64,000 bases of DNA from Candidatus Krumholzibacteriota bacterium (GCA_963806035.1 CAWDWO010000026.1:136092-200091), one strand, 5' to 3'; positions 1,478-52,075 are shown, numbered from the stretch's first letter. Notes: generated from the letters alone by a model not told the origin. Numbers and translations are program-made.

Positions 1478-1479
1478 CG

Positions 1480-4952: not shown

Positions 4953-5080
4953 TCAAGGATCGTGCCCAGCTGCGCCAAATTCCCCACTCAGGCGTTTGAA
5001 GGGCTCGAAAGGTACGGATTCGAGGATGCTGGAGGAATCTGCGAAGGAGCGACTCTGGCCGCCAGAAGGGGCAAAAAGCC

Positions 5081-5881
5081 CTAGAGTGCCCCGCGCCCCG
5101 TGATCACGACGCGAACCGTCGCCACGAGCAGGCGCAAGTCGCGCAGCAGACCGAAGCGCGTGATGTACTCCAGGTCCAGTGCCACCTTCTTGTGCACGCT
5201 GTCGAGCGACTCGTCGTAGCCGCTCTCCACCTGGGCCAGTCCGGTGATCCCGGGCTTGAAGCGAAGCCTCTCCAGATAGCCGGGGACCTCCCGGCTCAAG
5301 AGAGAGATGAACGGCGGACGCTCGGGACGGGGCCCCACCACGCTCATGGAACCCCTGAGCACGTTGTAGAACTGCGGGAACTCGTCGATTCGCGTCAGCC
5401 TGAGAAAGCGACCGACGCGCGTGATCCGCGGGTCGTTCTCGCTCGCCCAGCGCATCCCCTCCGATTCGGAGTTGATGTACATGGTCCTGAGCTTCCAGAT
5501 CTTGAAGGGCCTGCCCTCGGCGATCACGCGGCGAACGTCGCGGCTCTGCTGCTGGCAGCGTCTCTCCCCGATCTCCGGGGCCTGGGACTGCTCGCGCCGG
5601 CGCTCACGCCCGCGACGGTTGATGCCCACCCGAATTTGTCCGTAGAACACCGGGCCACGCGATTCGAGCTTGATGGCCAGCGCCAAAAAGGGCAGCAGGC
5701 AGGCAAAGAAGCCCAGAGCGACCAGGGAGAAGACGATGTCGAAGGCGCGCTTGACGCCTCGCTTCCAGCTCGGCACCTGTCCGTAGAGCGGAATCGGGCT
5801 CCCGAGGTACTTCAGCTGCGGGGCGTCGTAGCTGCGGGAATGCGATCCCACGTGCTGGATCATCGAAGGGTGGAGCTGCAT
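5081..5881 (-). CDS. polyprenyl glycosylphosphotransferase (bacterial sugar transferase, WbaP/EpsB-like, short form)
   Basis: C-terminal Bac_transf-like motifs (KFRTM..., SVVGPRPERPPF..., KPGITGLAQV); one TM helix; likely ATG at 5881 with an AAGG RBS (the track start at 5911 is TTG). Confidence 0.75.
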   Translation of the reverse strand: MQLHPSMIQHVGSHSRSYDAPQLKYLGSPIPLYGQVPSWKRGVKRAFDIVFSLVALGFFACLLPFLALAIKLESRGPVFYGQIRVGINRRGRERRREQSQAPEIGERRCQQQSRDVRRVIAEGRPFKIWKLRTMYINSESEGMRWASENDPRITRVGRFLRLTRIDEFPQFYNVLRGSMSVVGPRPERPPFISLLSREVPGYLERLRFKPGITGLAQVESGYDESLDSVHKKVALDLEYITRFGLLRDLRLLVATVRVVITGRGAL

Positions 5882-6098
5882 TCTGGACCTTTCACACACC
5901 CGCGCCGGCAAAGCGTCTCATTGGACTTTGGGAGCTGATCTGGACTGCGGCCTCCGGGCGGACGCGAAGCTGGGACTTCAGCGGGCGTGACCGGAGAGCC
6001 ACGACTTCAGGAGAGCGCCGGTAGAACTCCCCCAATCGTCAAGGACGAGATTAGCTCTTTCTTTCCCCTTCCACCAGGCAAGATCCTCGCCGGGCGCC

Positions 6099-7211
6099 TC
6101 AGAAGCTTCGCGCCAGGCTCAGCCCGGGCGCCTCTCCAACCCAGGCCACTCGCAAATCGACTCCCAGAGCGCCAATTCGCCCGTTTTCCAGCGGTATGGG
6201 AGAATCGTCGGCCAGGAAGATCGCATCCGCCATGTTCAGGACCCAGAGCGCCCCCATGCCGAAAATTACCGCACGCCTGCGTGATTTCGCGCTCTCGAGG
6301 TCCCCCTGAGCGGTGGCCCAGCTGGCTTTGGCCTCGGCCGTGGCTCCGCCCTGGCTCTCCTGAAGGGCGACCACGCGTCCGGCATCCTGTTCGCTGACCT
6401 TGCGTTGGTCCACGAAGCGCTGCGTCTCCACCAGCGTCACCCCGGCCAGAAAGCCCAAGGATGACCACACGAGACCCCGCGTCTCGTGGCCCAGGCGCGT
6501 CTGCCCGGATCCGGGATAGAGGAGCGAGAGCATGCCCACCCCCAGCGGGGAAGGCGGCCGGTAGCGGGCGGCGATGCTGCGGGTGCCCGAGAGTTCGAAG
6601 CGGTAGGGTCCGCGCCGGACCGCGGCGTGGATGATGTTTCCCAGGTGGGCATAGAGCGCGAGATAGCCGTAGTTGTTGCGCGTCTGTTCCTCGAGCCAGA
6701 CCTCGTCTGCGAGGTGATTCGCCACGCGCTGGTAGGCCGGAGTGAGTTTATCCGCGGCCGAGGTCTGCGCCGCGACCGCGTCCATGGTCTGCTGCCGATC
6801 GTTGACGCGCGCGGAGTAGCGAAAGACCTGTCCCAGGGCATTGCCCACTTCAGCCATCGGAACGAGCGCCGAGGCCGGCGAGAGATCGCGGAGCTGTCCC
6901 AGGCCGGGAACGAGGGTCGAGAGCAGAACACGGCTTCCGCGGCGGTCGGAAAGCACCACGCGGGTGCCCGCGTCCATCGTGATCTGGGCCTGCCGGACCC
7001 CGTCGCGGTAGAGCTGCACTTGGTAGCGTCCCGGCGTGAGGTCGTCCATCGCGAGTGGCGCCATGGACGAACGCTTCATGTCCTTTCCCTGAAGGACAAT
7101 TTCGCTGTTGCTCACCTGTGATGTCACGCGAAACGCATTGGGCGAGTTCTCCTGCGCCCCGGCCGGAATCGCCATCGCGCAGAGGAGGAATAAAAATAGG
7201 ATCATCGGACG
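6099..7211 (-). CDS. hypothetical secreted/membrane protein with a PEGA-like N-domain and repeated LxPGxGQ motifs
   Basis: Signal peptide MRPMILFLFLLCAMAIPAGAQ; motif LSTLVPGLGQL and LSLLYPGSGQT; no confident family assignment. Confidence 0.45.
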   Translation of the reverse strand, partial: RPMILFLFLLCAMAIPAGAQENSPNAFRVTSQVSNSEIVLQGKDMKRSSMAPLAMDDLTPGRYQVQLYRDGVRQAQITMDAGTRVVLSDRRGSRVLLSTLVPGLGQLRDLSPASALVPMAEVGNALGQVFRYSARVNDRQQTMDAVAAQTSAADKLTPAYQRVANHLADEVWLEEQTRNNYGYLALYAHLGNIIHAAVRRGPYRFELSGTRSIAARYRPPSPLGVGMLSLLYPGSGQTRLGHETRGLVWSSLGFLAGVTLVETQRFVDQRKVSEQDAGRVVALQESQGGATAEAKASWATAQGDLESAKSRRRAVIFGMGALWVLNMADAIFLADDSPIPLENGRIGALGVDLRVAWVGEAPGLSLARSF

Positions 7212-7301
7212 CATAAGGACCTCTCGGCTGATGTTTACCGCGGACAGTCTAGAACGGCGAGCGAAGGGAAGCAATTGTTCAGGCTCGCGGAGCGCGTCGG
7301 T

Positions 7302-8807
7302 TCAGCTTCCGCTCTCCGGCTGGCCCCCCATCTCTTTCATCATCTCACGCGCCCGCAGAGCGGCACGGCTTCCCGGCACCTGCTCGTCCACCCACTCCAA
7401 GTAGAGGCGGCTCAGCCTGGGGTTCTTCATCTCGTCGCGCGCGATTTCCGCCGCGCGCAGGAGCGCTTCGCCACCCCTTCGCTGTCTGCCCAGGATGTGG
7501 TGGATCTGCTCGAGTTGACGCAGAGCATCTTCGGTTTCGTGCAAAGCGAGGAGACAATCCACCGCGTGTTCGCGGGCGGCAATTCCCACCGCACCCGCCG
7601 AGGCGTGTCCGGAGATGAGACGCTGGTACTGCTCGAGCGCTCGATTGAGTTCGCTGGTGACAGTGCCCGCGTTGCCCCTGTCTCTCTGAATGTCCACCAG
7701 ACGCATGGGGGCTTCCAAGCCGGCCGCCGTGTCCGGATAACGCTGGATGAGTCGGCGCAAGGTCTTCTGAGAGCTGGACCAATCCGAGGCGTCCAAAAGA
7801 AGTTCGGATTTGCGCAGGAGGGCCGCCGCCGCGAGGCGAGACTGGTCGGGGAAATCATGCACGACCTCGTCCAGCGCGAGCATGGCGTCGTTGCGACGAT
7901 TGAGATCCACGAGGATCTCCGCGCGACGCAGCTTCGCCAAACCGCGCAGGCTCTCGGTCTGTGCTTCCTTGATGACTCGCAGATAGAGCGAATCCGCGCG
8001 CTGTGGTTGGTTCAGGCCGTGCGCCAAAATCTCAGCTCGATCGAAGAGAGCATTCAAACGGTCTTCCGGATCAAGCTCGCGCGCTTCGTAACGGCCCAGA
8101 CTTCGCTCCGCGTCTTTCCAACGGTGAGCCGCGATGTCCAGACGATGATCCAAGAAGGCCGCGCGGTCCCCGGTGCGCCTGCCCTGCCATTGCTTCTGCA
8201 CCCATCCGTAAAATTGGTGACCCTCCACCCTACCCTTCTCGGTGAGAAGACTGTCGGCCTTACCGTCGAGATCTTGTACCAACACCAAGGGCAAGCGCAG
8301 GATCTGGGGGTCGAGAGTACTGGGAGCCGGGGGCTCTTGCATGAGGGAGTAGAACTCTCCGTAGAGACTGACCGCGTCTTCCCATCGTTCCTGCGTGCGG
8401 GCCGACTCGGCGCGCAGCAACGCGGCCTGACGCCGCAGAATGATGGGCCCGGTGTCCTGGGCCGCGCGTAACTGGACTTCCGCCAGGTCGAAACGCCCGG
8501 CGCGCAGGAAGGAATCGCCGGCCTGGATCCTTCCCCATGCCTGCAGCGAGGATAGTTCGGCCATGACCTTGGGGTCGCTCTTCCCGTGCACCTGACTCGG
8601 ATCGGCACGTTGGGCGACCTCGATGTAGGCCAGCCCGGTGCGGTAGTAACCCTTGCGAATCTTGGGGTCCGCCTCCAGGGAGAAATTGATGGCTTCGCGT
8701 TCGGCCCAGTAGCGAGCACGTTCTGCCTGGTAGCGGGCGCGCATGTCCTGGCGGCCGCATCCGCACACGAGGATCAAGGAGAGGAAGAGGAGTCCGCGCG
8801 CTCTCAT
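7302..8807 (-). CDS. TPR-repeat lipoprotein (candidate PEP-CTERM-system PrsT-like)
   Basis: Internal start MRARGLLFLSLILVCGCG (lipobox) at 8807 overlaps the upstream gene stop (ATGA); TPR-like repeats throughout; co-operonic with exosortase and EpsI. Confidence 0.6.
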   Translation of the reverse strand: MRARGLLFLSLILVCGCGRQDMRARYQAERARYWAEREAINFSLEADPKIRKGYYRTGLAYIEVAQRADPSQVHGKSDPKVMAELSSLQAWGRIQAGDSFLRAGRFDLAEVQLRAAQDTGPIILRRQAALLRAESARTQERWEDAVSLYGEFYSLMQEPPAPSTLDPQILRLPLVLVQDLDGKADSLLTEKGRVEGHQFYGWVQKQWQGRRTGDRAAFLDHRLDIAAHRWKDAERSLGRYEARELDPEDRLNALFDRAEILAHGLNQPQRADSLYLRVIKEAQTESLRGLAKLRRAEILVDLNRRNDAMLALDEVVHDFPDQSRLAAAALLRKSELLLDASDWSSSQKTLRRLIQRYPDTAAGLEAPMRLVDIQRDRGNAGTVTSELNRALEQYQRLISGHASAGAVGIAAREHAVDCLLALHETEDALRQLEQIHHILGRQRRGGEALLRAAEIARDEMKNPRLSRLYLEWVDEQVPGSRAALRAREMMKEMGGQPESGS

Positions 8808-9646
8808 AGTCCACGGCTCCTGGGTTTCAGGAAAATTCGAATCGAGGCGTCCAGCGCGAGGAATCCGAACAAGAGAAAGATGGCGGCCTGCAGGGCCACC
8901 ACCACCAGAACGATTTCTGGCCGTAGCTGAGCGGCCAGGCGAGTCGAGCGCTGCAGAATCAAGGACAGCGGAAGTCCCGCGAGCCAGGGCAAGAGAACGA
9001 AAGCCACAGGCCACTGTAGATCCTGGCGCGTCCGCCGGAAACTGGCCCCGATTGCGCGCGGCAATCCCCTGTCCTCACGCAGAAGGTGCGCCGGCACGAA
9101 GAACAGGGGGCACAAGAGGAGCAGCGGAAGGAGGCTTCCGAAGGTGGTGATCAACGAGTGGATCCTGTAGGAAAGATCAAATCGCGTGTTCAAAAGATAG
9201 ATCGGCAAGCCGTAGAGGAGAATCCACCCCGCGATTTCCACACAGGTCAACAGGAAGAGGGGCAAGTAGTAATGAGCGCTGTCGCGGGCGGGCGTCTTGT
9301 TCTGTGTGCGTTCGTCACCCACGACGTGGTAGACGGCCAAACCGCACCAGGCCGCGACGAAGGGACTCACGAAAAGATCCACCAGGAGCTTTCCCGCCGC
9401 GCCGGTCACCGGCAGTCCGATGAAGGATTCCGGGTAATGCAGGTAGTAGGAACCGAAGACCCTCTGCACGAAGGGGACGACCGCGCCACCCCACAGGGGA
9501 AAGGTCGGATCCGCGCAAATCACGAATACCATGAGCTCCGCGGCGAAGGCGAAGAAGAGTACGACACGCACCCCGGCGCGCCGAAAGTCCAGGAATCCGA
9601 GGACGATCAGGCGAATGAGATCTTCGACGAAGCGCAGGAGGTTCAT
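8804..9646 (-). CDS. hypothetical multi-pass membrane protein, co-operonic with exosortase and EpsI
   Basis: 280 aa, six or more hydrophobic helices; start overlaps the EpsI stop (ATGA) and its stop overlaps the TPR gene start. Confidence 0.55.
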   Translation of the reverse strand: MNLLRFVEDLIRLIVLGFLDFRRAGVRVVLFFAFAAELMVFVICADPTFPLWGGAVVPFVQRVFGSYYLHYPESFIGLPVTGAAGKLLVDLFVSPFVAAWCGLAVYHVVGDERTQNKTPARDSAHYYLPLFLLTCVEIAGWILLYGLPIYLLNTRFDLSYRIHSLITTFGSLLPLLLLCPLFFVPAHLLREDRGLPRAIGASFRRTRQDLQWPVAFVLLPWLAGLPLSLILQRSTRLAAQLRPEIVLVVVALQAAIFLLFGFLALDASIRIFLKPRSRGL

Positions 9647-10278
9647 TGGCCTCCCCTCTCGTCAAAGTAGCGGAGCACTTCTTCTCCGTAGCTATCCCAG
9701 CTGCGAGCCAGCCGCTTCTGAGCCACGCTCTCTCCTTCCACGTCGAGCACGGGGGTACTGAGCCGGAGCAGGAGCGCGTCGCGCGAGCTGCCGCGCAGGG
9801 AAGAAAGCATCTGGTCCAGTTTGAGGCCGAGCGCACTCGTCACCTGTCCACGACGTGTACGATAGGCGTACCACACGAGCCGTTTCTCTCCCTGTTTCTC
9901 GATCAATAGCTGGCGCATCACCGAATCGTCCTCGTGTACCACTTCGCTGTCGATGATTTCCCATCCCGCGCCCGGATAGCAGTGCTCGGGAGCGTGCACC
10001 TGCGCGTTGGTTCTCTGCCCCGCGTAATAGCCGGCGTAGATCCAGACGGGAGCCCAGTCCTCGCTCTTCACTTCCACGAAGCGATAGCGGTCGACCCCCA
10101 GCGCCTCGCGCGCTTGCAGCGAAACGGGGAGCACCGTCACCTGCGCCCCCTGAAGAATGCTGTCGGCGAAGTCCTTCGACCAATCCGCCTCCGCGACGGG
10201 AGTCTGAAGACGATGCGAGAGAAAAGCCACGCCGAGAAATCCAACTCCCAGGATGAGGGCACGAGGGGATCGTCTCAT
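9643..10278 (-). CDS. epsI: EpsI-family protein (exosortase-associated)
   Basis: Signal/TM N-terminus (MRRSPRALILGVGFLGVAFL) and the EpsI signature HAPEHCYPGAGWEI (HxPxxCxPGxGW); ATG at 10278 overlaps the exosortase TGA. Confidence 0.7.
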   Translation of the reverse strand: MRRSPRALILGVGFLGVAFLSHRLQTPVAEADWSKDFADSILQGAQVTVLPVSLQAREALGVDRYRFVEVKSEDWAPVWIYAGYYAGQRTNAQVHAPEHCYPGAGWEIIDSEVVHEDDSVMRQLLIEKQGEKRLVWYAYRTRRGQVTSALGLKLDQMLSSLRGSSRDALLLRLSTPVLDVEGESVAQKRLARSWDSYGEEVLRYFDERGGQ

Positions 10279-11102
10279 GATCTCGTCCCCCGCCGGATGA
10301 ACGCAGCCATCCCCAACACGATCACTCCCAGAGCGAAGCTCAGAAGTCCGCCTCCGAGATGAAAGAGGTTCTCCGCCGTCTCCGGTCCACCCAACTGCGC
10401 GCCGTAGCCGGTCAACACCAAGCGCAACAGATTGGCTCCCAGTGCCAGAGGCACCGAAAGGAGCAGCAAGAAGAGAGTGCGGCGCACCGAGAGACGCGCG
10501 GCCGCCGCGATGAAGGCGGCCAGTGCGCTCATCACCAAGAGACTGCGTAGCCCGCTGCAGGCCTCCACCACTTCCAGATCGTATCCGGCGAAGTGCAGCA
10601 GATTCCCTTCTCTGGCCAGGGGAACCCCGCTCCAGTGCAAGACGAAGGCCGCCGCGGCCGAGGACATCCGCTGCAGATGCGCGGTCGCACCGTAGTAGAG
10701 CACGTAGGGCCAGGGGACCAAGAGGAGCAGCGCGAGAAGCGGACCGCGCCAGGCGGAGACGATCTTGGCGGGAGCCAAGGCCTCGACTGCAGCGAGAACG
10801 GCCAGGATCAAGGACCAGCGCAAGAGGCTGTCGTTGGCCACCAACAGGCCGCCAACCGCCGCGAGCAGGGCCATGAGCGCCCAGCCCCACCAGATTGGAG
10901 CCAGCCCCCTCTCCCCGCTCTCATCGCCCTTCAAGCTGCGCCAGATCGCCAGCGCGATCAAAAGTCCGCCCAGGACGAGTCCGTGTCCGTAGTTGGGATC
11001 GGAAATGAGGTCCGCGACCCAGCCCTTGAAGATCTGCGCGTAGGCCAGCAGAAAGGCCAGCGTCGCGAAGGCAACGCTGAGGACGAGCCGCAAGTTCTTC
11101 AT
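10275..11102 (-). CDS. xrtA: exosortase (XrtA/EpsH family)
   Basis: ~8 TM helices with conserved exosortase features: NYGHGLVLGG, EACSGLRSL (catalytic Cys), NLLRLVLTG; adjacent to EpsI and a PEP-CTERM protein. Confidence 0.8.
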   Translation of the reverse strand: MKNLRLVLSVAFATLAFLLAYAQIFKGWVADLISDPNYGHGLVLGGLLIALAIWRSLKGDESGERGLAPIWWGWALMALLAAVGGLLVANDSLLRWSLILAVLAAVEALAPAKIVSAWRGPLLALLLLVPWPYVLYYGATAHLQRMSSAAAAFVLHWSGVPLAREGNLLHFAGYDLEVVEACSGLRSLLVMSALAAFIAAAARLSVRRTLFLLLLSVPLALGANLLRLVLTGYGAQLGGPETAENLFHLGGGLLSFALGVIVLGMAAFIRRGTRS

Positions 11103-11213
11103 CGCGTCCCCCCGGGCACGATGTCCCTCCCGAATGCGCCCCCAAAAGGGACATGGATGAGCGGTATCCAGTCGACTGGGCCGCCCGTCGCACGGGCGGC
11201 CGGCGTCGAGAGA

Positions 11214-12140
11214 CTACTGCTTCATCCAGCGGAGGGAAAGCAAATGCGCCTGTCCCAGTTCCTTGTGCGGAACGTAGGCGTAATCCAGGGCCAATCCCGA
11301 GTGGGCGATGGTGAAGCCGAATCGCAGCGGAGAGAAGCTCGCCTGCTCCGAAGATTCGGTGAGCGCGACATAACCCGCGCGCAAATTGAGGATCCCGTGC
11401 ATCCCCGACCACTGCGCGCCCAGAGCGAGGTCCTTGTCGCCATAACGGCGGTCGTTGTACTGAGCCACGAGTTCCACATCGTGCAGCCCCGGTGAAACCG
11501 CGACACCCGTTGCCAGACGCCGTGGCGGATCGTAGCTGCTGCCGTCATAGTTCAGGTAGCCGAAGAGATTGGTGCCGGACACCCCGATGCGTGCCGGTCC
11601 CACGTCCAGGAGCGCACCGAGATCGAAAGAGAAGCCGGTGCCCTTGGCCACCTCCAGGTTCTCCTGGATGTACTGCGCGCCCGCACCCAGGCTGAGCATG
11701 CCGAAGCGCATGGCATAGGCCGCGCCCAGGCTGAGATCCTGGGGCTCCAGAGAGCCCATCCGGTTGCCACTGGCGTCGAATCGCGGCACGCTCGCATGGT
11801 TCACCATGCGGCCCGTCAGCGCGAGTCCGGAGCGGCCCTTCTGCAGGGGCATCTGAATGGACAGGGCATTGACGCGCTGCTCGGCCAACCACAGCTCGTG
11901 GGTCAGGGTGGCGGTGCTGCTCGTCACCTGGGACCCGGCCGGGTTGGCGAAAGGCGAAATTCCGTGGCTGAATCGTGCAACATCCGCTCCACCCATGCCC
12001 GCACCCACCACGTCCACGGGAATGCTGAGGAAGGTGCCGCTGGTCTCTTGAGCCCAAGCGGATGGCGCCGCCACGCCGAGGAAGAGCAGGATGTAACCCG
12101 TGATGCTGAGAAAGTAATGGACTCGTCTTGATTGACGCTT
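11214..12140 (-). CDS. putative outer-membrane beta-barrel protein (EpsL-like / PEP-CTERM-system-associated)
   Basis: Signal peptide MKRQSRRVHYFLSITGYILLFLGVAAPSAWAQ; alternating amphipathic strands rich in G/S/Y; location between exosortase and the EPS export genes. Confidence 0.5.
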   Translation of the reverse strand, partial: KRQSRRVHYFLSITGYILLFLGVAAPSAWAQETSGTFLSIPVDVVGAGMGGADVARFSHGISPFANPAGSQVTSSTATLTHELWLAEQRVNALSIQMPLQKGRSGLALTGRMVNHASVPRFDASGNRMGSLEPQDLSLGAAYAMRFGMLSLGAGAQYIQENLEVAKGTGFSFDLGALLDVGPARIGVSGTNLFGYLNYDGSSYDPPRRLATGVAVSPGLHDVELVAQYNDRRYGDKDLALGAQWSGMHGILNLRAGYVALTESSEQASFSPLRFGFTIAHSGLALDYAYVPHKELGQAHLLSLRWMKQ

Positions 12141-12215
12141 CATCTGCAAGACTCTACGCTCCCTTTTCGACCCTCCCCACCCCAATGACTGGGCAGGATC
12201 CAAGCCAAATTCCCC

Positions 12216-13217
12216 ATGTCTGACGCCAACTCACGCATTCGTTCGTTCCTGAGCCGGCACCTTTTCGCCTACCTTGCGGCTCTGGCGCTCCTCGTGGTGG
12301 TTCTCGCCTTCATCCTGGCGAGAAAGCCCCTACACGAGGCCTGGCAGGTCTTTGATCGTTCTCTCATCCTGCCGGTTCTCGCCCTGAGCCTGCTCAACTA
12401 CTGGCTCCGTTTCGCCAAGTGGGACTTCCTCTTGAAGGCCCTGAAGATCCGCGTGCCCTTTGTGTCCAACGCGCGCATCTACTTTTCTTGCCTCACCATG
12501 GTCGTGACTCCCTTCCGACTGGGTGAGGTCTACAAACTCGTCTTCCTGCGCCGCCAACACGGCCACTCGATCCAGAGCACCACTCCCGTGCTCCTGGTCG
12601 ACCGGATCACCGATGCCTTCGCCCTGACCCTTCTGGCCCTGGTCGGGATCGGTAGCGGACAGAAGAACCTCCAACCGCGCCTGATCGCGCTCTTGCTGGT
12701 GACCCTCCTCGGCGGCTTCCTCTTGGGTCGTCCCTGGGTGCAGAAGCTGATGCTGCGGCTTCTGCGAAAGATTCCCTGGACGGCCAAGCGAGCCGACTCG
12801 TTGGGCGAAGCCCTGCGCGACGGTGCGCGACTCTTTTCCACCGCGAAACTTCTCCCCGCTCTTCTCTTGAGCTTGGGGGCATGGTTCGCGGAATGCGTGG
12901 GGCTCTATCTGATTCTCGTGGGGCTGGGGACGTCCATTCCCCTCGTCCAGGCCAGCTGGATCTATGCTGGCAGTACGATCGCAGGGAATCTCACCTTGTT
13001 GCCGGGCGGCTTGGTGGGGACAGAAGCTCTTTTGATCGAGATTCTGCGCCAGTCCGGCATCACTCTCGCCACGGCGACCGCGGCGACCCTGCTTGTTCGG
13101 GGAGCGACTCTATGGTTCGCGGTTCTTCTCGGTCTTGTCGTAACCTTCACTTCCCGGCGTGAGCTGCGGTGGAAAGAGCTTCGGCGAGAAACAGATTCTT
13201 ATTCTTCTTCGCCGTAA
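12216..13217 (+). CDS. flippase-like integral membrane protein (UPF0104 / LPG-synthase-TM family)
   Basis: 333 aa with ~8 TM helices; the only convincing plus-strand gene in the locus; the minus-strand ORFs over it are Arg-rich artefacts. Confidence 0.55.
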   Translation: MSDANSRIRSFLSRHLFAYLAALALLVVVLAFILARKPLHEAWQVFDRSLILPVLALSLLNYWLRFAKWDFLLKALKIRVPFVSNARIYFSCLTMVVTPFRLGEVYKLVFLRRQHGHSIQSTTPVLLVDRITDAFALTLLALVGIGSGQKNLQPRLIALLLVTLLGGFLLGRPWVQKLMLRLLRKIPWTAKRADSLGEALRDGARLFSTAKLLPALLLSLGAWFAECVGLYLILVGLGTSIPLVQASWIYAGSTIAGNLTLLPGGLVGTEALLIEILRQSGITLATATAATLLVRGATLWFAVLLGLVVTFTSRRELRWKELRRETDSYSSSP

Positions 13218-13900
13218 TAGCTGTACTCGTAGTAGTAGGGTAAGACTCGTGACGCGTTGTTGAGAACCACGCCAAGGATGCGTGCGTTTGAATCATCGAG
13301 AATGTCTCGTGCCCGTTCGACGACTTCTCGTGGGGTGAGTCCACCCATGATCACCATCAAGATTCCATCCATCTCTCCCGCCAGGATCGTGGTATCCGCG
13401 ACGGGCAATACCGGGGGCGCATCGAAGATGACGATTTCAAATCGTTTTCGCAAGTGCTCGACGGTATCGCTCAGATGCTGTCTTTCGAAGAGTGCTCCCG
13501 GGTGTTCCTCGCGGTACCCACTCGGGATCACTTGAAGAAAAGAGTGAGGAGTCGGCCGTAAGGCCTGATCGATCGAGCACTTCCCCTGCAGGATATCGCT
13601 GAGTCCCGGCTCACGCGGCATCTCGAAGAGCTTGTGGACGGTGGGACGGCGCAGATCGGCGTCGACCAAAACCGTGCGCGTGCGACGGTGACGCGCCACC
13701 GTGACGGCCAAATTCGCCGAGGTGGTGCTCTTTCCCTCGCCCCTCTCGGCGGAAGTTAACATCAGGACCTGTGCCGAGAGTTCCTTCAGCCGCGGACGCA
13801 GCTTGGTGTACATCCGTCGCATCTCGACTGCCAAGGGAGTCTCGAAATCCTTGGGATCGGTGGACAACAGAGACGATTGCTGAACCTCGTTCTCTCTCAC
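13199..13900 (-). CDS. BY-kinase-type tyrosine kinase ATPase domain (EpsG/CpsD-like)
   Basis: Walker A (ERGEGKSTTSANLA), A' (VLVDADLRRP) and B (IVIFDAPPVLPVAD) motifs; Tyr-rich tail YYYEYSYYGEEE; probable GTG start at 13900 overlapping the Wzz TGA (the track start at 14080 would overlap Wzz by ~180 nt). Confidence 0.75.
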   Translation of the reverse strand: MRENEVQQSSLLSTDPKDFETPLAVEMRRMYTKLRPRLKELSAQVLMLTSAERGEGKSTTSANLAVTVARHRRTRTVLVDADLRRPTVHKLFEMPREPGLSDILQGKCSIDQALRPTPHSFLQVIPSGYREEHPGALFERQHLSDTVEHLRKRFEIVIFDAPPVLPVADTTILAGEMDGILMVIMGGLTPREVVERARDILDDSNARILGVVLNNASRVLPYYYEYSYYGEEE

Positions 13901-15627
13901 TGTGAATCCCCTGGGGCGGAAGAGGGTGCGGCGCTTTCCGTCAATGGACTGAGCGGCTGAATGTGATCGTGCACCATGGCCTGTCGATAGTAGAGGACGA
14001 AGAGCAGCATCGCCGTCACCAGGGTGACGATGAATGCGGTTCTCCACACGAACACCGTGCGCCTCTTTTTGAGGCTCCACTCATAGGTATCCGCGAAGCG
14101 CGGTAAAGTTCCCACCACGCGCAGTCCCAGGATGTGCTCGACCTCGTCCACGTCCTTGAAACTGGAATCCACGTATTCCGCCAGGAAGATGGCGCCCATT
14201 CCGATGCCCAGGGCGAGCACGATGCCCATCAACGCGATCTTCTTCTTGTCCGGCTTGAAGGGCGTAATCGCCTTGAAGGCCGGCTCCAGGACACGAACGC
14301 TGATGCCGAAGCCACTCTCGTTCGCGGCCAGTCGCAGCTCGTTGGAGTTCTCGGCGTCGATCAGGTGGTTGTAGATCGACTCCTCCTGGGAGACCTTTTG
14401 CTCCAGACGGCGTAGCTCGGCCTCCAGCCCCGGCTTCTTTTTGATGCGTTGCTGGAAGGCGTCGTATTCGCCCTGGATCCTGTCCTGATGCTTGCGCAGC
14501 ACCTCGTCGACGACCATGAGCTCTGCCTTCCGCGCGAGCATTTCCAGCGCGTGCTTGGGCAAATTGGGGTAAGCGTCGCTCATGATCTCGAGCATGCGCG
14601 CGTTCAGGCGATTTCTCTGCACACCGATTCGCTGCTGTTCGGGGGTGATTCCCGAAGCGGAGCTGACCGTAGTGCCGAGCTGTGAGACGTAGTCCTGTTG
14701 TTCCAGCGCTTCGAGCCGATCGCGGATTCCCTGCACCTGCGGGTCGTCACTGAAGCGGAGATTTCGCGGAGGCGAGTCGAGCATGGAGAACAGCTCGTTG
14801 TCGATGCGCGTGATCTCGCGCTCGTTTTCCGTGAGATCGAGTTTGACGTTTTGCAGGATCCCCTCGGCCTGACGGCTGTTCTTTTCGTTCACCGGATTGT
14901 TGGTGAGGGTCTCCTGGATGACGCGGGTTCGTTTGAACTTCTCGAGTTCCGATTCCGCATCCTTGAGATTCTGCCGCGCGCTCTCCAACTGTTGATCGGT
15001 GAAGCTGGTGGTCTCGATCAGACCCTCCACCCTGCGCCGGTTCATCTCCTCCACGAAGGCCTCGGTCACCGCCTCGGTGAGCTTGTACGCAGTGTAGGGA
15101 TCGTTGTCCTCCATGCTGATCAGAAAGAGGTTGCCCTCCTGATAGCTGACGTAAAGCTTGTGGCGTAGACGATCGACCAGGAGTCGCTCGGCGATCAAAC
15201 TGAGAGTCTGATCCGGCAGCTTCGTCTCCTGGAGGATCCGCGCCTGCTCCTGGATCTCCTTGTCGTTACGCAGCTGGAGATTCCGGATGACGCGGGTGAG
15301 CAGCTGTTGCGACATGAGCGTCTCGCGCACCATGACCAGGTTCTCGAGATCGCGCACGCGGCGGGCCTCGCGCGTCATGAGCTTGTCCACGTCGGTTCCG
15401 GTGCTTCGGTCTTCCAAGAGGATACGCACGCTCGACTGATACACGGGCGGCATCGTCGCGACTCCCGCCCCCAGAACACTCCCGATCACCAGCACCGGAA
15501 GAATGAGGTAGAAACGGCGCCGGCGAATGATCTGCCACAGGCGATGGGGATCGAACCCTCCTTCGCCGCTCTTGGACGCTTGGGAAGGGCCCGACCTATG
15601 CTGCGATTTCCTGGGGCTAGGGGCCAT
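13897..15627 (-). CDS. polysaccharide co-polymerase / chain-length determinant (Wzz/GumC/EpsF-like)
   Basis: N- and C-terminal TM helices flank a long coiled-coil periplasmic region; pairs with the downstream BY-kinase. Confidence 0.7.
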   Translation of the reverse strand: MAPSPRKSQHRSGPSQASKSGEGGFDPHRLWQIIRRRRFYLILPVLVIGSVLGAGVATMPPVYQSSVRILLEDRSTGTDVDKLMTREARRVRDLENLVMVRETLMSQQLLTRVIRNLQLRNDKEIQEQARILQETKLPDQTLSLIAERLLVDRLRHKLYVSYQEGNLFLISMEDNDPYTAYKLTEAVTEAFVEEMNRRRVEGLIETTSFTDQQLESARQNLKDAESELEKFKRTRVIQETLTNNPVNEKNSRQAEGILQNVKLDLTENEREITRIDNELFSMLDSPPRNLRFSDDPQVQGIRDRLEALEQQDYVSQLGTTVSSASGITPEQQRIGVQRNRLNARMLEIMSDAYPNLPKHALEMLARKAELMVVDEVLRKHQDRIQGEYDAFQQRIKKKPGLEAELRRLEQKVSQEESIYNHLIDAENSNELRLAANESGFGISVRVLEPAFKAITPFKPDKKKIALMGIVLALGIGMGAIFLAEYVDSSFKDVDEVEHILGLRVVGTLPRFADTYEWSLKKRRTVFVWRTAFIVTLVTAMLLFVLYYRQAMVHDHIQPLSPLTESAAPSSAPGDSQ

Positions 15628-15655
15628 GCTGATTCTCCACGACGCGCGTACGCGT

Positions 15656-16633
15656 TTACTTGCGCGAAACGCTGATCAAGAGGGCGACCACCCCGGTGAC
15701 CGAGGCCACGATGCCGGGAAGAATCCGCCACACGCCTCCCGAGCTGGGCTTCTTCTCGACGAAAACCGTGTCGCCCGAATAGACCAGGGGGTTGCCGCTG
15801 ATCTGTCCGTTCTCCAAGAAGAGGGTCGTATCCACCGTCCGGCCCTGTAGGCTACCGCGCCCCGAATCGTGCACCAATCGCACCTTGTGGGGGTCACCCT
15901 CGCCGTTGAAACCGCCCGCCAGGAGGATCACCGTGAGCACCGGGGTGGGACCCTCCACGCTGTAGAACCCCGCCTTGACGACCTGCCCGAACACCTGCAC
16001 GCCGGTCTCCCGATCCGCCGCGTTGAGCATCGCGTCGTCGGGAACGATGACGGTGTCCCCCGGCGAAAGATCGGGAAGATCTCCGGTCCCCTCTCCGTGG
16101 ATCACCTCGGCAACGTTCACCAGAGTCGTCACCGTCGATTTCTCGTCATTGTGAAGCACGCGCACGCGCCGCAAATTCGCGGTGGCGGTCGGCCCTCCCG
16201 CGGTGCGGATCGCGTCCCATGCAGTGGGAGTTTCCTTGAAGGAATGTACGCCGGGCTTCGCGACAGCCCCCATGACGTAGATCTGCAAACTCTGATACTT
16301 GCTGACCGTGACGGAAACCTCGGTGATGTCTCGGTTGAAGGAACGCAGTCGCTTCGCGAGAAGGTCCTCCAGTTCGGGAACGGTCAGTCCGGCTGCCTTG
16401 ACCTCACCGACGAGCGGCACCACTACCGTACCATCGTCACGGACGGTGAGTTCCCGATCGAGAGTGGGCTGCTGCCACACCGAGAGCTGGAGCACGTCTC
16501 CCACACCGAGATGGTAGGGCCGGCCCGCGACCGCGTTGGGATACTGCGCCAGAGCACCAGGCACGGCCACCGCGCCCAGAAGAGCGAGCAGAAGGAGGAG
16601 GCTCAGGGATCGACAGGACTTGGGCAATCTCAT
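15656..16633 (-). CDS. polysaccharide export protein (Wza/KpsD/EpsA-like; Poly_export + SLBB)
   Basis: Signal peptide MRLPKSCRSLSLLLLLALLGAVAVPGALA from the ATG at 16633; Poly_export-like PYHLGVGDVLQLSVW and SLBB-like segments. Confidence 0.75.
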   Translation of the reverse strand: MRLPKSCRSLSLLLLLALLGAVAVPGALAQYPNAVAGRPYHLGVGDVLQLSVWQQPTLDRELTVRDDGTVVVPLVGEVKAAGLTVPELEDLLAKRLRSFNRDITEVSVTVSKYQSLQIYVMGAVAKPGVHSFKETPTAWDAIRTAGGPTATANLRRVRVLHNDEKSTVTTLVNVAEVIHGEGTGDLPDLSPGDTVIVPDDAMLNAADRETGVQVFGQVVKAGFYSVEGPTPVLTVILLAGGFNGEGDPHKVRLVHDSGRGSLQGRTVDTTLFLENGQISGNPLVYSGDTVFVEKKPSSGGVWRILPGIVASVTGVVALLISVSRK

Positions 16634-16780
16634 GTTCCAGGGTACCCGCGCTGAATGGAATGACGAAACCGGGCAACTCGCAAAGAGACGCCCACGAATG
16701 CGGGACCCTCTCAGCCAGAGGATCCCGCTCCAATCCATATACGCTTATGGAGTCGATGACAATGCCCGAGTGAGGCTCTC

Positions 16781-17341
16781 CTAGCTCTGGGCCTGTGCCC
16801 CTCGGCGACGGGCATGAATCATGGCTCCCACGATGACCAGACCACATGCAAGAAGCATGACGGTGGCAGGCTCGGGGGCCGGGGTCGCCGCGGTGCGGGG
16901 CTGACGCCCCTCCATGGGTACGCTGACGATGGGATCTCCACCGCGGTTGCGGTCCAGGGCTACCCAGCCCGTGGGCTCACCCAGGTTGACATCGCCGTCG
17001 CCAATGCGGGTGACGCCGAGGGTCGTGGTGAGAGGAATCGCACCGCTGGAAATGGTGCCCGTACCGGCATCGGGGTCCTCGCTGGGGAAGACCAGGGGGA
17101 GGCGGCCATTCGGTTCCACCAGATAGAGATCGGAACTGTTCGATCCCTCCGGGGTCTGCAGTTTGAGCGTGAGTTCGGGAGTCTCGGCGGGATCGGCCGT
17201 CTCAGGCACGGCGCTCCAGATCGTGGACGAACCCAGGGCCGCTGCTGAGGGGTCCACTGCCATGTTGGCCTGCGCGGACGGCGCGGCCAGGCAGAGGAGC
17301 AGCGCGAGGGCTGCGGAAAGGATCAGAAGTGGGCGCGTCAT
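16781..17341 (-). CDS. PEP-CTERM sorting-domain protein (exosortase substrate)
   Basis: Signal peptide MTRPLLILSAALALLLCLAAPSAQA; C-terminus is a PEP motif + TM helix + basic tail (PEPATVMLLACGLVIVGAMIHARRRGAQAQS); GAGG RBS before the ATG at 17341. Confidence 0.8.
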   Translation of the reverse strand: MTRPLLILSAALALLLCLAAPSAQANMAVDPSAAALGSSTIWSAVPETADPAETPELTLKLQTPEGSNSSDLYLVEPNGRLPLVFPSEDPDAGTGTISSGAIPLTTTLGVTRIGDGDVNLGEPTGWVALDRNRGGDPIVSVPMEGRQPRTAATPAPEPATVMLLACGLVIVGAMIHARRRGAQAQS

Positions 17342-17423
17342 GATTAGGACCTCGATCGCAGGGCAGGGTAACGGGAATTCGGGCGCGACCACGGCCTCCG
17401 CGGCCACCCGAAAGCTCCCCAAT

Positions 17424-17453
17424 AGTTTAGAAGCGTTTGCCATGGATTGTCAA
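17424..17453 (-). promoter_or_regulatory. sigma70-like promoter (TTGACA-N18-TAAACT) upstream of the PEP-CTERM gene
   Basis: Minus-strand sequence TTGACAatccatggcaaacgcttcTAAACT lies ~75 nt upstream of the ATG at 17341. Confidence 0.4.
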
Positions 17454-17478
17454 CTCTGGCAAAGGGACGCTAAACTCC

Positions 17479-18426
17479 CTAGCTGCCTTGGGTTTCCTGT
17501 GATGCCCGATACCACTCCACAGTCCGCCGTAGTCCCTCGTCGAAGGGGATCTGAGCCTCGTATCCCAGCAGCTCTCGGGCCCGTGAAATATCGGCCTGGC
17601 TGTGCCGCACGTCCCCCGTCCGGACCGGTCCGTGGACGGGATCGAGCGAGCTTCCCACCAGCCTGGCCAGGCGCGCATAGAGTTCGTTGAGCGTGACCCG
17701 GTCCCCCAAGGCCACGTTCACCACCTCCCCGGAGAGCTTGGGCGCCCGCAGGGCGAGGAGATTCGCGTGAACCACGTTCTCCACGTAGGTGAAATCCCGT
17801 GACTGCTCGCCGTCGCCGTGGATGGTCGGAGGCTCCCCCTTCAAGAGAGCGTCCAAGAAGAGCGGAATCACGGCCGCGTAGGGGCTGTCCGGGTCCTGGC
17901 GCGGACCGAAGACGTTGAAGTAACGGATGGCCAGGGTCTCCATGCCGTAGACCTGGGCAAAGACCGACACGTATTGCTCCCCCGCCAGTTTGGCCACCGC
18001 GTAGGGAGACTTGGGCCTCTCCCGCATGGTCTCCACCTTGGGCAAAACCTCACTGTCGCCGTAGGCCGAGGAGGAAGCGGCATAGATCACTCGCTTCACG
18101 CCTTCGTCCCGGCTCGCAACGAGCACGTTCAATGTGCCCGCTACGTTGACCGCATTGCTGGCCAGTGGGTCCTTCACGCTGCGCGGAACCGAGGCCAGCG
18201 CGGCCTCGTGAAAGACGTAGTCGCAGCCCTTCACCGCCTCGCGCACTTTCTCGAGTTCGGTCACGCTGGCCCGGAAAACTTCGTCGACGCCAGCCGCCTC
18301 GACATTGCGCTCAAATCCGGTCGAGAAGTCGTCGAGGATTCTCACCTCGTCCCCCGCCTCCACCAATGCGGCCGCGATGTGCGAGCCGATGAATCCCGCG
18401 CCTCCTGTGATCAGGACTTTCGCCAT
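17479..18426 (-). CDS. NAD-dependent nucleotide-sugar epimerase (UDP-GlcNAc(A) 4-epimerase, TviC/WbpP-like)
   Basis: MAKVLITGGAGFIGSH Rossmann start, YxxxK (YAVAK) catalytic motif; adjacent to a WbpA/TviB-like dehydrogenase. Confidence 0.8.
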   Translation of the reverse strand: MAKVLITGGAGFIGSHIAAALVEAGDEVRILDDFSTGFERNVEAAGVDEVFRASVTELEKVREAVKGCDYVFHEAALASVPRSVKDPLASNAVNVAGTLNVLVASRDEGVKRVIYAASSSAYGDSEVLPKVETMRERPKSPYAVAKLAGEQYVSVFAQVYGMETLAIRYFNVFGPRQDPDSPYAAVIPLFLDALLKGEPPTIHGDGEQSRDFTYVENVVHANLLALRAPKLSGEVVNVALGDRVTLNELYARLARLVGSSLDPVHGPVRTGDVRHSQADISRARELLGYEAQIPFDEGLRRTVEWYRASQETQGS

Positions 18427-18443
18427 GAGCTTCTCCTGCCCCT

Positions 18444-19745
18444 CTAGAGTCGATAGAGATGATCGAATGCTTCTCCGCGCAGAGCGTTGCGCGTGTCGAC
18501 CACGCTTTGGCAATGCTTGGCGAAGAGGGAGTGGTCGACGTCCGCATGCGCGGTGGTGATGACGGCGCAATCGAATTCCGCAAGTTGCTCCGCGCCGATT
18601 TCCACCAGGCGCTGCGCGTCCAAGGGAAGCGGCAGCTTCTCCACATGCGGATCGTACCACCAGGTCTGAGCTCCCATCTCACTGACCTGTTGCAGTACGT
18701 CCAGCGCCGGCGATTCGCGCGTGTCGTCGATTCCCGCCTTGTAGGCGATGCCGACGATGAGAATCTTGCTGCCGCGGACCGCCTTTCCTCTGTCGTTGAG
18801 CGCGCTGGCCACCAGCTGCAAGACGAAGCCGGGCATGCTGCTGTTGATCACGCCCGCCAGCTCGATGAAGCGCGCCTCGAATCCGTGCGCGCGCGCCTTC
18901 CAGCTGAGGTAGAAGGGATCGATCGGAATGCAGTGTCCACCCAGACCGGGGCCGGGATAGAAGGGCATGAAGCCGAAGGGTTTGGTGGCCGCGGCATCGA
19001 TGACTTCCCACACGTTGATGTCCATCTTGCTGCACATCTGCGCCATCTCGTTCACCAGACCGATGTTCACACTACGGAAGGTGTTCTCCAGCAACTTGAC
19101 GGTTTCCGCGACACGAGCGCTGGACACCGGCACCACCTGACTGAGGGAAGCGCGGTACAGCGCGGCCGCGGTCTCGGTGCAGGCGGGCGTGATCCCGCCC
19201 ACGATCTTCGGGATGTTCTTGGTGCTGAAGCGTGGGTTGCCGGGGTCGACTCTCTCCGGCGAGAAGGCCAAATAGAAATCCTCTCCCACTTTCAAGCCGG
19301 TGCTCTCGAGCCGGGGCAGGATCACCTCTTCGGTGGTTCCCGGATAGGTGGTGCTCTCCAGGATGATCAGCATGCCGGGATGCAGATTCTCGACGATCTT
19401 TTCCACCGCCGAGTCGATGTAGCTGATGTCCGGATCGCGGGTCTTGGAGAGCGGAGTCGGAACGCAGATGTTCACGCTGTCACAGGACTCTAGGACGCTG
19501 AAGTCGGTAGTGGCGCTCAAACGCCCCTTCGCGACCAGCTGGGCCACCGTGTCGGACTTGACGTCCCCGACGTAGCTCTCGCCGCGCGCGAGCCTCTCCA
19601 CTTTCCTCGAATCCAAATCGATGCCGGTGACCGTGAAGCCGCTCTTCGCGTACTCGACGGCCAGGGGCAATCCCACGTAACCCAGCCCGATGACGGCCAG
19701 CCGAGCTGAGCCATCTTTGAGTTTTTCTTGAAATGTCATGATCAA
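18444..19745 (-). CDS. UDP-N-acetyl-D-glucosamine/mannosamine 6-dehydrogenase (WbpA/TviB/WecC family)
   Basis: VIGLGYVGLPLA NAD-binding start; nucleotide-sugar-dehydrogenase central and C-terminal domains; 433 aa. Confidence 0.8.
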   Translation of the reverse strand: MIMTFQEKLKDGSARLAVIGLGYVGLPLAVEYAKSGFTVTGIDLDSRKVERLARGESYVGDVKSDTVAQLVAKGRLSATTDFSVLESCDSVNICVPTPLSKTRDPDISYIDSAVEKIVENLHPGMLIILESTTYPGTTEEVILPRLESTGLKVGEDFYLAFSPERVDPGNPRFSTKNIPKIVGGITPACTETAAALYRASLSQVVPVSSARVAETVKLLENTFRSVNIGLVNEMAQMCSKMDINVWEVIDAAATKPFGFMPFYPGPGLGGHCIPIDPFYLSWKARAHGFEARFIELAGVINSSMPGFVLQLVASALNDRGKAVRGSKILIVGIAYKAGIDDTRESPALDVLQQVSEMGAQTWWYDPHVEKLPLPLDAQRLVEIGAEQLAEFDCAVITTAHADVDHSLFAKHCQSVVDTRNALRGEAFDHLYRL

Positions 19746-20794
19746 TCCTCAGGCGCGGCAGCGTTTGGGACCGGGGGTGAAAGAGGATATCCGATACGGT
19801 CCCGGCCCTCCGACTTGGCGAGGTAGAGGCGGTCATCGGCCCGGCTCAAAAGCTCGCGCGCGGAATCTCCGTCTTCGGGATACACAGCGATCCCCGCGCT
19901 GACGGTGAGCCGGCGCTGAGGATCGTCATGGAAGCGGTGGCCGGCGACCCTGCGGAGCATTCTTTCGGCGAACACGATCGATCCCTCCGCGTTGGTGTTC
20001 GGCAGAATCAAGCTGAACTCATCGCCACCGTACTTGGCGATGATGTCGATTTCGCGGGCGTCGGTTCTCAAGAGGGATCCCATCTCGCGCAAGGCAGAAC
20101 TCCCGGCCAGGTGGCCATTCACGTCATTGTATTCTTTGAGGTTGTCGACATCAACCATCACCACCGCGAAGGGCTCCTGGAAGCGGCTGGCCCGCTTCAC
20201 CTCGCGATGCAGTGCGTCCATGAAGTAGCGGTAGTTGTACAAACCGGTCAGCCCGTCGGTGCTGGCCTCCGTCTCCAGGCGGTGATAGAGGCGGGCCAAC
20301 TCCAGGACCACCGAGGCCTGGTTGGCCAGAAAGCCGAGCAGCTTGGCGTCCTCCGGAGAGAAGGAGGACTCCTGCGGAAAGACGATGAGAATCCCCCGCG
20401 TCTTGCCCCCCGCGAAGAGAGGCGAGGACATCGGCGGACCGAAGGCAATACTGTCCTTGAAGCTGCCGATTTCTTCCATGAGGAGCTCCGGCGGCTGAAG
20501 GAGCGCTTCGGCCTGCTCCTGCTGGATCCACTTCACCAGATTGGTGCTGCGCGACAGCAGCTGGGCGCTGAGGACCTCCCGGCCCTTCTCGTCTCGCGAG
20601 AGGACCAGACGGCGAATCCGCTCATTTTCCACCAGGAGCAGATGCACGAAACGGGCATCCAGCAACGAGAGCGCGCTGCGCAGGATCCTCTCCAGAATCT
20701 GCTCTTCCCGATGGGGTCCCGCGCTGATCAAGCCCGAGAGCTCGTAGATCGCCTCAAAGAGGCGTTCCCAGCGGGTACTTTCGTAAGTTTCCAT
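19742..20794 (-). CDS. GAF-domain diguanylate cyclase (GGDEF)
   Basis: RYGGDEF active site and I-site-like RxxD; N-terminal GAF-like region; stop overlaps the dehydrogenase start. Confidence 0.8.
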   Translation of the reverse strand: METYESTRWERLFEAIYELSGLISAGPHREEQILERILRSALSLLDARFVHLLLVENERIRRLVLSRDEKGREVLSAQLLSRSTNLVKWIQQEQAEALLQPPELLMEEIGSFKDSIAFGPPMSSPLFAGGKTRGILIVFPQESSFSPEDAKLLGFLANQASVVLELARLYHRLETEASTDGLTGLYNYRYFMDALHREVKRASRFQEPFAVVMVDVDNLKEYNDVNGHLAGSSALREMGSLLRTDAREIDIIAKYGGDEFSLILPNTNAEGSIVFAERMLRRVAGHRFHDDPQRRLTVSAGIAVYPEDGDSARELLSRADDRLYLAKSEGRDRIGYPLSPPVPNAAAPED

Positions 20795-20886
20795 GGATTT
20801 CCCGATCCAGTGTGCGGTACCTCAGCCGGCAATATGCAACTAGTGTGCCTCTGCCTTCCAAGTTCTTCCTCAGCAAGGTTTTACCC

Positions 20887-21475: not shown

Positions 21476-21545
21476 AACCGCGGCTGAATCTGAGCGAAAG
21501 ACGCCACCGGAACAGCTCGAGGCCCCGTGGACTTTCGGCGGAAAG

Positions 21546-49114: not shown

Positions 49115-49156
49115 TCCGTCAGTACCAAAATCCGCGCCATCTGGGAATTGGGCAAG

Positions 49157-52072: not shown

Positions 52073-52075
52073 CGG

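Follow-up and report, generated by a model that had tools for sequence, protein, structure and literature searches.

An exosortase locus of Candidatus Krumholzibacteriota probably forms the core of a conserved exopolysaccharide and protein-sorting cassette with a single PEP-CTERM-class protein

Exosortase systems are widespread in environmental bacteria and their biochemistry, including the acceptor, the accessory proteins and the outer-membrane route, is barely known. In the XrtA/PEP-CTERM system (PMC1569441; TIGR03109), an EpsH-family exosortase is encoded together with EpsI, the exporter Wza, a chain-length determinant (Wzz) split from its bacterial tyrosine kinase (BY-kinase), a TPR protein, a sensor kinase and a sigma-54 regulator. 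Cys-x-Gly, Asn-x-x-Arg and His-x-x-x-Gly have been defined as the invariant exosortase motifs, and EpsI is found directly downstream of EpsH (Haft 2006, PMC1569441). Single-gene PEP-CTERM operons with long intergenic regions are the rule, a genome with one PEP-CTERM domain lies at the low end of the range, and proteobacterial PEP-CTERM genes carry an upstream sigma-54 box (Haft 2006, PMC1569441). Experiments on PepA of Aquincola (PMC9850573) and on CrtB of Nostoc (PMC12188702) set a precedent for PEP-CTERM proteins and exosortases tying exopolysaccharide (EPS) to cells. Here, we analyzed a 64,000-nucleotide stretch of DNA (the window) from a Candidatus Krumholzibacteriota bacterium (GCA_963806035.1, CAWDWO010000026.1:136092-200091) that carries an exosortase locus on its minus strand at positions 9643-17453. 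Based on our analysis, this region is probably the core of an EPS and protein-sorting cassette specific to Krumholzibacteria.

An original prediction, made from the sequence, had described the region as an unusually compact XrtA-type exosortase and PEP-CTERM locus for EPS export. Positions 1-21 kb of the window were examined in detail and the rest of the 64 kb was surveyed; G+C content was ca. 0.62-0.65 throughout. Using six-frame open reading frames and hidden Markov model (HMM) scans, all predicted elements were found again at or very near the places assigned to them, with family assignments at E-values of 1e-22 to 1e-44. Three starts were shifted to match junction sequences and the lengths of orthologues, that of Wza to 16633, that of the kinase to 13900 and that of the TPR protein to 8807. 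Compactness did not hold up: the 7.8 kb first flagged are part of a conserved unit of ca. 20 kb and 18 genes (ca. 900-20850), and the succession Wza, Wzz, kinase, exosortase and EpsI is the classic core order. In Methylobacillus sp. 12S the EpsE-F-G-H-I(-L) core likewise runs from exporter through chain-length determinant and tyrosine kinase to exosortase and a separate EpsI. The cassette is syntenic, with protein identities of 48-95%, in seven related metagenomic loci (L001 and L003-L008), all of which join the exosortase, EpsI and PEP-CTERM genes to the Wza-Wzz-BY-kinase export set in the same order as the window, in line with the original prediction. These seven are the loci long enough to show the cassette; an eighth, L002, lies on a short contig and shows the downstream part only. 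Closest among the genomic loci is L003, taken from a metagenome-assembled genome (MAG) of Candidatus Krumholzibacteriota.

The first half of the cassette consists of genes for a GGDEF protein, a nucleotide-sugar dehydrogenase, an epimerase, the PEP-CTERM protein, Wza, Wzz, the BY-kinase, an LPG_synthase_TM flippase-like protein on the opposite strand and a PorV-like barrel. A variable slot, the exosortase, EpsI, a 280-aa membrane protein that we call mem280, the TPR protein, a PEGA/DUF5683 protein, a Bac_transf priming enzyme, a sensor kinase and a sigma-54 regulator make up the second half. The next gene after the regulator encodes LptE, probably an unrelated housekeeping function outside the cassette. 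Genes meet in ATGA or GTGA overlaps, and in the window exosortase, EpsI, mem280 and TPR genes form a four-gene chain joined by ATGA. All components listed above for the XrtA/PEP-CTERM system are shared by this locus, including a single-gene PEP-CTERM protein with long flanking intergenic regions. The locus differs from that system in its free-standing EpsI, in XrtA-specific models that all stay below cut-off, in a substrate promoter that is sigma-70-like instead of a sigma-54 box, in the one substrate gene seen in the window and in four extra conserved proteins, namely mem280, the PEGA/DUF5683 protein, the flippase-like protein and the PorV-like barrel.

The exosortase carries both predicted motifs (VVEACSGLRSL and ANLLRLV), and it and EpsI pass the general family models PF09721 and TIGR04178, and TIGR02914 and PF11984, respectively (Table 1). 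In an alignment of 17 exosortases with identities down to 24%, C182-S-G, N224-L-L-R227 and H248-L-G-G-G252 are invariant. The window exosortase and a protein annotated from a Candidatus Krumholzibacteria MAG (P0001) share 100% identity; homologues form a tight clade of at least 58% identity, followed by a sharp fall to 37% or less outside the clade. Scored against curated subtype models, the exosortase reached 111.5 bits for XrtD (cut-off 400), 108.8 for XrtA (208), 80.6 for XrtV (313) and 55 for XrtB (275), and thus fits no curated Xrt subtype; the L005 exosortase scored 105.7 on the XrtA model. EpsI contains HAPEHCYPGAGW, as predicted, and its ATG lies at 10278 instead of 10281. The resulting 4-nt ATGA overlap with the exosortase stop makes the proposed translational coupling plausible. 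Although the XrtB-type eps locus of Methylobacillus 12S (TIGR03028, TIGR03017, TIGR03029, TIGR03113, NF045609) shares the core order and also encodes an outer-membrane barrel, the window proteins are distant from it by score, with EpsI type B at 38 vs 220 and EpsE, EpsF and EpsG far below their cut-offs.

The export genes predicted beside the exosortase were all recovered. Wza shows a Poly_export domain followed by two SLBB domains (SLBB_2, SLBB) and a C-terminal hydrophobic helix visible in the sequence. The BY-kinase has Walker A (GEGKST), A' (VLVDADLRRP) and B (IVIFDAPP) motifs as well as the tyrosine cluster in its C-terminal tail (YYYEYSYYGEEE). The flippase-like gene diverges from the PorV-like gene and keeps its position in all Krumholzibacteria loci. 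Its 3' end and that of the BY-kinase gene overlap convergently by 19 nt (13199-13217); the overlap is 10 nt in L001 and 19 nt in L004.

The presumed dedicated substrate starts with a signal peptide (MTRPLLILSAALALLLCLAAPSAQA...) ending in CLAAPSAQA and has the C-terminus TPAPEPATVMLLACGLVIVGAMIHARRRGAQAQS. Upon re-translation, the predicted tail of PEP motif, transmembrane (TM) helix and arginine cluster was present in the layout PAPEP-ATVMLLACGLVIVGAMIHA-RRRG; the description as canonical was too strong, given its sub-cut-off scores on TIGR02595 and PF07589 (see below). Very few proteins belong to the substrate family: 5.8 billion clustered proteins yielded only two close homologues. Orthologues always lie between the epimerase and Wza genes and always within the exosortase locus. 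Searches with a regular expression and a clade tail HMM found a single PEP-CTERM-like tail in the 64-kb window (71.7 bits, next match 6.1), one such tail in each orthologous locus covering the substrate position and no further PEP-CTERM proteins in the window or the related loci. A single adjacent substrate gene with its own promoter, as originally proposed, is what we observe. The promoter pattern TTGAC(A/G)-N17/18-TAnnCT is kept in six of the six orthologous intergenic regions compared, with diverged flanks. A sigma-54 promoter for the substrate gene was rejected as no conserved -24/-12 element is present upstream. Further, there was no sign of a structured or regulatory 5' untranslated region: Rfam gave no match in 5000-21500, and no fold was conserved among six orthologous leaders. 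A weak hairpin resembling a terminator, CCCGCATTCGTGGG, with a T-rich run behind it (16691-16704, minus strand), lies in the 147 nt that separate the substrate gene from Wza and would fit a single-gene transcript that is partly separate. In its overall setting the protein resembles PepA of the flocculation system with PrsK, PrsR, PrsT and RpoN in Zoogloea and Aquincola (PMC9850573), which is also a small secreted PEP-CTERM protein beside EPS genes, accompanied by a TPR protein and a sigma-54 regulator and likely involved in EPS binding to cells. The two differ in that no sequence similarity extends beyond the tail (floc_PepA, 7.7 bits) and that the substrate gene described here lacks a sigma-54 promoter.

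The gene following EpsI encodes mem280, for which HMM scans returned no Pfam or NCBIfam family; the 1.84 billion representatives searched include no more than 20 relatives. G65, H70-Y71-P72 and P243-E244 are invariant. The AlphaFold2 (AF2) model of mem280 has a pLDDT of 89.8 and no PDB match with E <0.1. Three distant members with 19-24% identity were looked up (L011, 8001-8843; L012, 112-957; L013, 8001-8813). In L011 and L013, mem280 lies directly after exosortase and EpsI and directly before a TPR gene of ca. 500 aa; in L012, where the contig starts at mem280, a TPR gene likewise comes next, as it does in all related loci. In L012 and L013, the TPR gene is followed by a GAF kinase and a sigma-54 regulator, a pair comparable to the one in the window. 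The exosortases of L011 and L013 score 200 and 187 of the required 208 bits on the XrtA model, and the L013 kinase 297 of 300 on PrsK. Because the mem280-TPR module recurs in these loci, which are near XrtA by score, the best reading of the Krumholzibacteria system is a branch that has diverged strongly from a near-XrtA lineage with which it has an Xrt-EpsI-mem280-TPR module in common, that is, XrtA-like but not XrtA. The link to XrtA is indirect and runs via the distant loci sharing the module. We consider mem280 a candidate for an unrecognised core exosortase accessory protein.

The outer-membrane barrel named in the original prediction is borne out by a beta-barrel model (AF2, mean pLDDT 73), and its membership in the PorV/PorQ family had been missed. 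Its top PDB match is 6H3I_F (E 2.4e-11, TMq 0.65), which is PorV in the SprA complex of F. johnsoniae; FadL, TbuX and TodX come next. Barrel homologues form a tight clade of at least 48% identity, all within the cassette, and the place of the barrel gene is the same in every Krumholzibacteria locus of sufficient length. In contrast to the Methylobacillus barrel, it is PorV/FadL-like and has no NCBIfam EpsL match at E <= 0.01. The slot between the barrel and exosortase genes is empty in the window (11103-11213, minus strand; 111 nt) and in L003 and L004, and is filled by a Wzx flippase in L001 (8535-10004), L007 and L008 and by three GT4 glycosyltransferase genes in L005 (7748-11200) and L006. 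Inserted genes follow the barrel gene with short gaps or overlaps. Within the 111 nt of the window, a GC-rich hairpin, GCCGCCCG-TGCGA-CGGGCGGC, is found without a T-run. The two distant loci L011 and L013 have neither the barrel nor the flippase-like gene nor any adjacent substrate gene, so that the three features co-vary across the sampled loci. The barrel is our best candidate for an outer-membrane partner of the exosortase system.

Several points weigh against the proposed cassette function. On TIGR02602 the exosortase scores 103.5 vs 105.55 and misses the cut-off by 2 bits, and exosortase activity in this clade is a prediction. The substrate tail stays below both curated cut-offs, with 15.3 vs 16 on TIGR02595 and 16.9 vs 20.7 on PF07589. 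Synteny is what suggests a link between the exporter and the sorted protein, and because a single lineage at phylum level is the source of every orthologous locus, shared ancestry partly explains the conserved order. Distant relatives of the barrel (24-29% identity) adjoin genes for Por_Secre_tail cargo of a type IX secretion system (T9SS), which the barrel may serve. Finally, the cassette in the window has neither Wzx nor Wzy nor any glycosyltransferase except the priming enzyme; the polymer must consequently be built by genes elsewhere.

The low tail scores would be expected if the PEP-like tail were a mere C-terminal membrane anchor or a chance likeness, and the protein an uncleaved, tail-anchored periplasmic component of the exporter. 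We regard this as highly improbable. The P-x-P-E-P-x-x-V-x-L-L-A-x-G-L…R-x-R core is unchanged in syntenic orthologues that are only 27-40% identical overall; conservation thus peaks in this core, in a protein that evolves fast and is seen only beside an exosortase. All weak HMM matches of the substrate fall on tails of PEP-CTERM families, and across orthologues the tails score 14.0-16.4 on TIGR02595 and 14.6-20.3 on PF07589, with L005, the most divergent orthologue (tail NPVPEPHTVMLLASGLL…LRRR), the only one to pass TIGR02595 (16.4). PF07589 is known to detect only 22% of true PEP-CTERM instances (Haft 2006, PMC1569441). Given the invariant tail, the exclusive matches to PEP-CTERM families and the L005 score, we accept the tail as a PEP-CTERM-class signal slightly off the canonical profile. 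The second question is whether this sorting system is a bona fide XrtA system of the standard proteobacterial type with many substrates elsewhere in the genome. XrtA-associated models are indeed the best or second-best match of Wza (TIGR03027, 119 of 180 bits), Wzz (TIGR03007, 155 of 279) and the kinase (TIGR03018, 140 of 231), the window regulator matches PrsR with 386 bits and the distant mem280-TPR loci come close to the XrtA and PrsK cut-offs. Nonetheless, all of these accessory models remain below cut-off in the window, the exosortase reaches about half of the XrtA threshold and scores slightly higher on XrtD, and its clade is sharply set apart by identity. Membership in the PrsK/PrsR/PrsT set was rejected: the regulator scores lower on PrsR than on AtoC and NtrC, PrsK is absent from the top 25 matches of the kinase and the TPR protein has YbgF-like repeats only and no PrsT match. 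Together with a PEP-CTERM gene that has no sigma-54 box upstream, this makes a standard XrtA system unlikely, and the original XrtA label is not supported.

A barrel that works for T9SS, as the shuttle and attachment barrels PorV and PorQ do (6H3I chain F; NF033709, NF033710, NF033711), or as a FadL-like lipid channel, and merely resides in the cassette with no role in exosortase sorting or EPS export is a more serious alternative, which we hold to be possible although not the favoured one. Besides the T9SS cargo genes next to its distant relatives, the barrel passes the PorV/PorQ family HMM with PorV as best structural match, and the exosortase-EpsI-mem280-TPR module in L011 and L013 does without a barrel. 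Further, at least one T9SS type A cargo is encoded by the organism, a 730-aa protein with a GldK/FGE-sulfatase-like domain, FlgD_ig and a C-terminal T9SS type A sorting domain (58323-60515, minus strand; TIGR04183 24.3 vs 23), in agreement with the original statement that the lineage encodes T9SS-sorted proteins. On the other hand, the barrel fails the equivalog models widely (PorV 32 vs 250, PorQ 55 vs 220, PorV2 22 vs 325), heads the exosortase operon instead of lying beside PorU or T9SS cargo, keeps this first position even where Wzx or three GT4 genes are inserted, and is present or absent together with the flippase-like gene and the adjacent substrate gene. We slightly favour a barrel that belongs to the exosortase system. 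One elaboration of this role is that a PorV-type barrel was recruited together with the flippase-like protein and one PEP-CTERM protein into an exosortase/T9SS-like hybrid sorting system, in which the barrel would receive or anchor the processed protein, the flippase-like protein would supply the periplasmic acceptor and mem280 would be a core partner shared with near-XrtA systems. This scheme is speculative and we consider it rather doubtful; if true, the barrel would be the long-sought outer-membrane step for an exosortase substrate. Literature searches linking exosortases with PorV, or Krumholzibacteria with T9SS, returned nothing relevant.

The gene content, motifs, synteny, promoter footprints and folds described above are results of the analysis. 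By analogy with characterised PEP-CTERM systems, in line with the Haft 2006 model (PMC1569441) and the PepA and CrtB phenotypes, we infer a mechanism in which the cleavage step, the acceptor, what the barrel does and how the genes are regulated are proposals. Sec would export the 186-aa acidic protein, which would stay in the inner membrane by means of its C-terminal helix and arginine cluster. At the periplasmic face, the exosortase (Cys182/Arg227/His248) would recognise P-x-P-E-P, cleave and either release or transfer the mature protein, probably working with EpsI, mem280 and the TPR lipoprotein encoded in the ATGA-joined chain. In parallel, the Bac_transf enzyme may initiate an acidic amino-sugar polymer with sugars that the TviB/TviC-like pair provides; Wzz, the BY-kinase and Wza would export this polymer, and the processed protein would end up with the polymer or at the cell surface. 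Regulation appears to be split, with the sigma-70-like promoter presumably driving the substrate gene and a sigma-54-type promoter the GGDEF and sugar-precursor genes, the latter presumably answering the sensor kinase and sigma-54 regulator of the locus. Cyclic di-GMP (c-di-GMP) signalling via the GGDEF protein and the kinase/sigma-54 regulator pair would then probably control precursor supply.

The sigma-54-type element upstream of the GGDEF gene is present at the same place in L003, L004 and L007, that is, in four loci including the window, with diverged flanks in L007. Since sigma-54-like matches across the window are not above chance level (29 vs 25), it is this phylogenetic footprint that argues for the element. 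Its conservation suggests that the regulator of the locus may drive the precursor and c-di-GMP genes and not the PEP-CTERM gene. All cassette features are collected in Table 1.

Table 1. Features of the cassette and its regulatory elements in the 64,000-nt window (scores in bits; vs, score against cut-off; GA, gathering threshold).
Feature	Position	Strand	Basis
Sigma-54-type promoter-like element AGGCAC-N5-GTTGCA	20835..20850	-	41-56 nt upstream of GGDEF gene; one mismatch to TGGCAC-N5-TTGCA
GAF-GGDEF diguanylate cyclase, first cassette gene	19742..20794	-	TIGR00254 159; syntenic in L003, L004, L007, L008
Nucleotide-sugar 6-dehydrogenase (TviB/WecC-like)	18444..19745	-	TIGR03026 430 vs 190
NAD-dependent sugar epimerase	17479..18426	-	NF011728 277; best match TviC (UDP-GlcNAcA 4-epimerase), below cut-off; start ATG 18426 picked from orthologue length, 314-315 aa
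Sigma-70-like promoter TTGACA-N18-TAAACT of substrate gene	17424..17453	-	10/12 matches; no other strong site on the minus strand in 9-18 kb
Presumed dedicated substrate of the exosortase, a small, secreted, acidic protein of 186 aa with PEP-CTERM-class tail	16781..17341	-	Signal peptide + TPAPEP + TM + RRRG
Wza-like outer-membrane polysaccharide export protein (OPX)	15656..16633	-	PF02563 77, SLBB 58.7 and 49.3, all above GA; best NCBIfam match TIGR03027 (exporter of XrtA systems), 119 vs 180; start from orthologue length
Wzz/polysaccharide co-polymerase (PCP) chain-length determinant, no kinase domain	13897..15627	-	TIGR03007 155 (cut-off 279) best; PF02706 27.1 vs 25.5
BY-kinase	13199..13900	-	TIGR01007 145 vs 108; GTGA overlap with Wzz stop
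Flippase-like membrane protein (LPG_synthase_TM/UPF0104)	12216..13217	+	PF03706 140; TIGR00374 88.5 vs 43.2
PorV/PorQ-family (FadL-like) outer-membrane beta-barrel, first gene of exosortase transcription unit	11214..12143	-	NF033709 90.9 vs 90 (marginal)
Exosortase (EpsH family)	10275..11102	-	PF09721 151.1 vs GA 25.7, E 4.8e-44; TIGR04178 62 vs 23
EpsI, free-standing	9643..10278	-	TIGR02914 78.1 vs 42.8; PF11984 107.5 vs 26.1
mem280, orphan multi-pass (~6-TM) membrane protein	8804..9646	-	ATGA overlaps with EpsI and TPR genes
TPR protein, 501 aa, possible lipoprotein signal (MRARGLLFLSLILVCGCG)	7302..8807	-	PF13174, YbgF-like stretch; start set by ATGA overlap
PEGA + DUF5683 membrane protein	6099..7214	-	PF18935 29.3 vs 26.7; PEGA 17.7
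Priming polyprenyl-phosphate sugar-phosphate transferase (Bac_transf), start approximate	5081..5911	-	TIGR03025 268 (cut-off 296); syntenic
PAS-HisKA sensor kinase	2874-4952	-	HMM scan
Sigma-54-dependent response regulator	1480-2877	-	PrsR 386.5 vs 502.6, under AtoC and NtrC

The PEGA/DUF5683 protein shows repeated L-x-PG-x-GQ motifs, is syntenic downstream of the TPR gene and also occurs in L011 (14219-15028). Outside the cassette, a second polysaccharide-type cluster was observed at 46888-63941 (minus strand). It encodes an EpsD-like GT2 glycosyltransferase, two large proteins matching no family, a GFO/IDH/MocA oxidoreductase, a second Bac_transf enzyme, a 696-aa DegT-type aminotransferase fusion, a GT4 glycosyltransferase and a radical SAM/SPASM protein (61608-62741). 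This cluster may supply the glycosyltransferases, Wzx and Wzy missing from the cassette.

In conclusion, the kind of system described here is known, and its novelty lies in the lack of a subtype assignment, in the conserved partners mem280 and a PorV-like barrel heading the exosortase operon and in the single syntenic substrate. With our analysis, the range of the PEP-CTERM system comes to include the candidate phylum Krumholzibacteriota; full-text literature searches found no paper naming Krumholzibacteria together with exosortase or PEP-CTERM. If the system is an ordinary one, the value of this finding is mainly annotational. The recurrence of the Xrt-EpsI-mem280-TPR module points to a new family model, from which the annotation of XrtA-like loci could benefit. 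Further, the locus represents a minimal case in which one exosortase and one conserved adjacent substrate are combined with fixed partners that are presumably co-translated (EpsI, the TPR lipoprotein and mem280 of a new 6-TM family) and a PorV-like barrel, and this small gene set makes it a tractable target for reconstitution.

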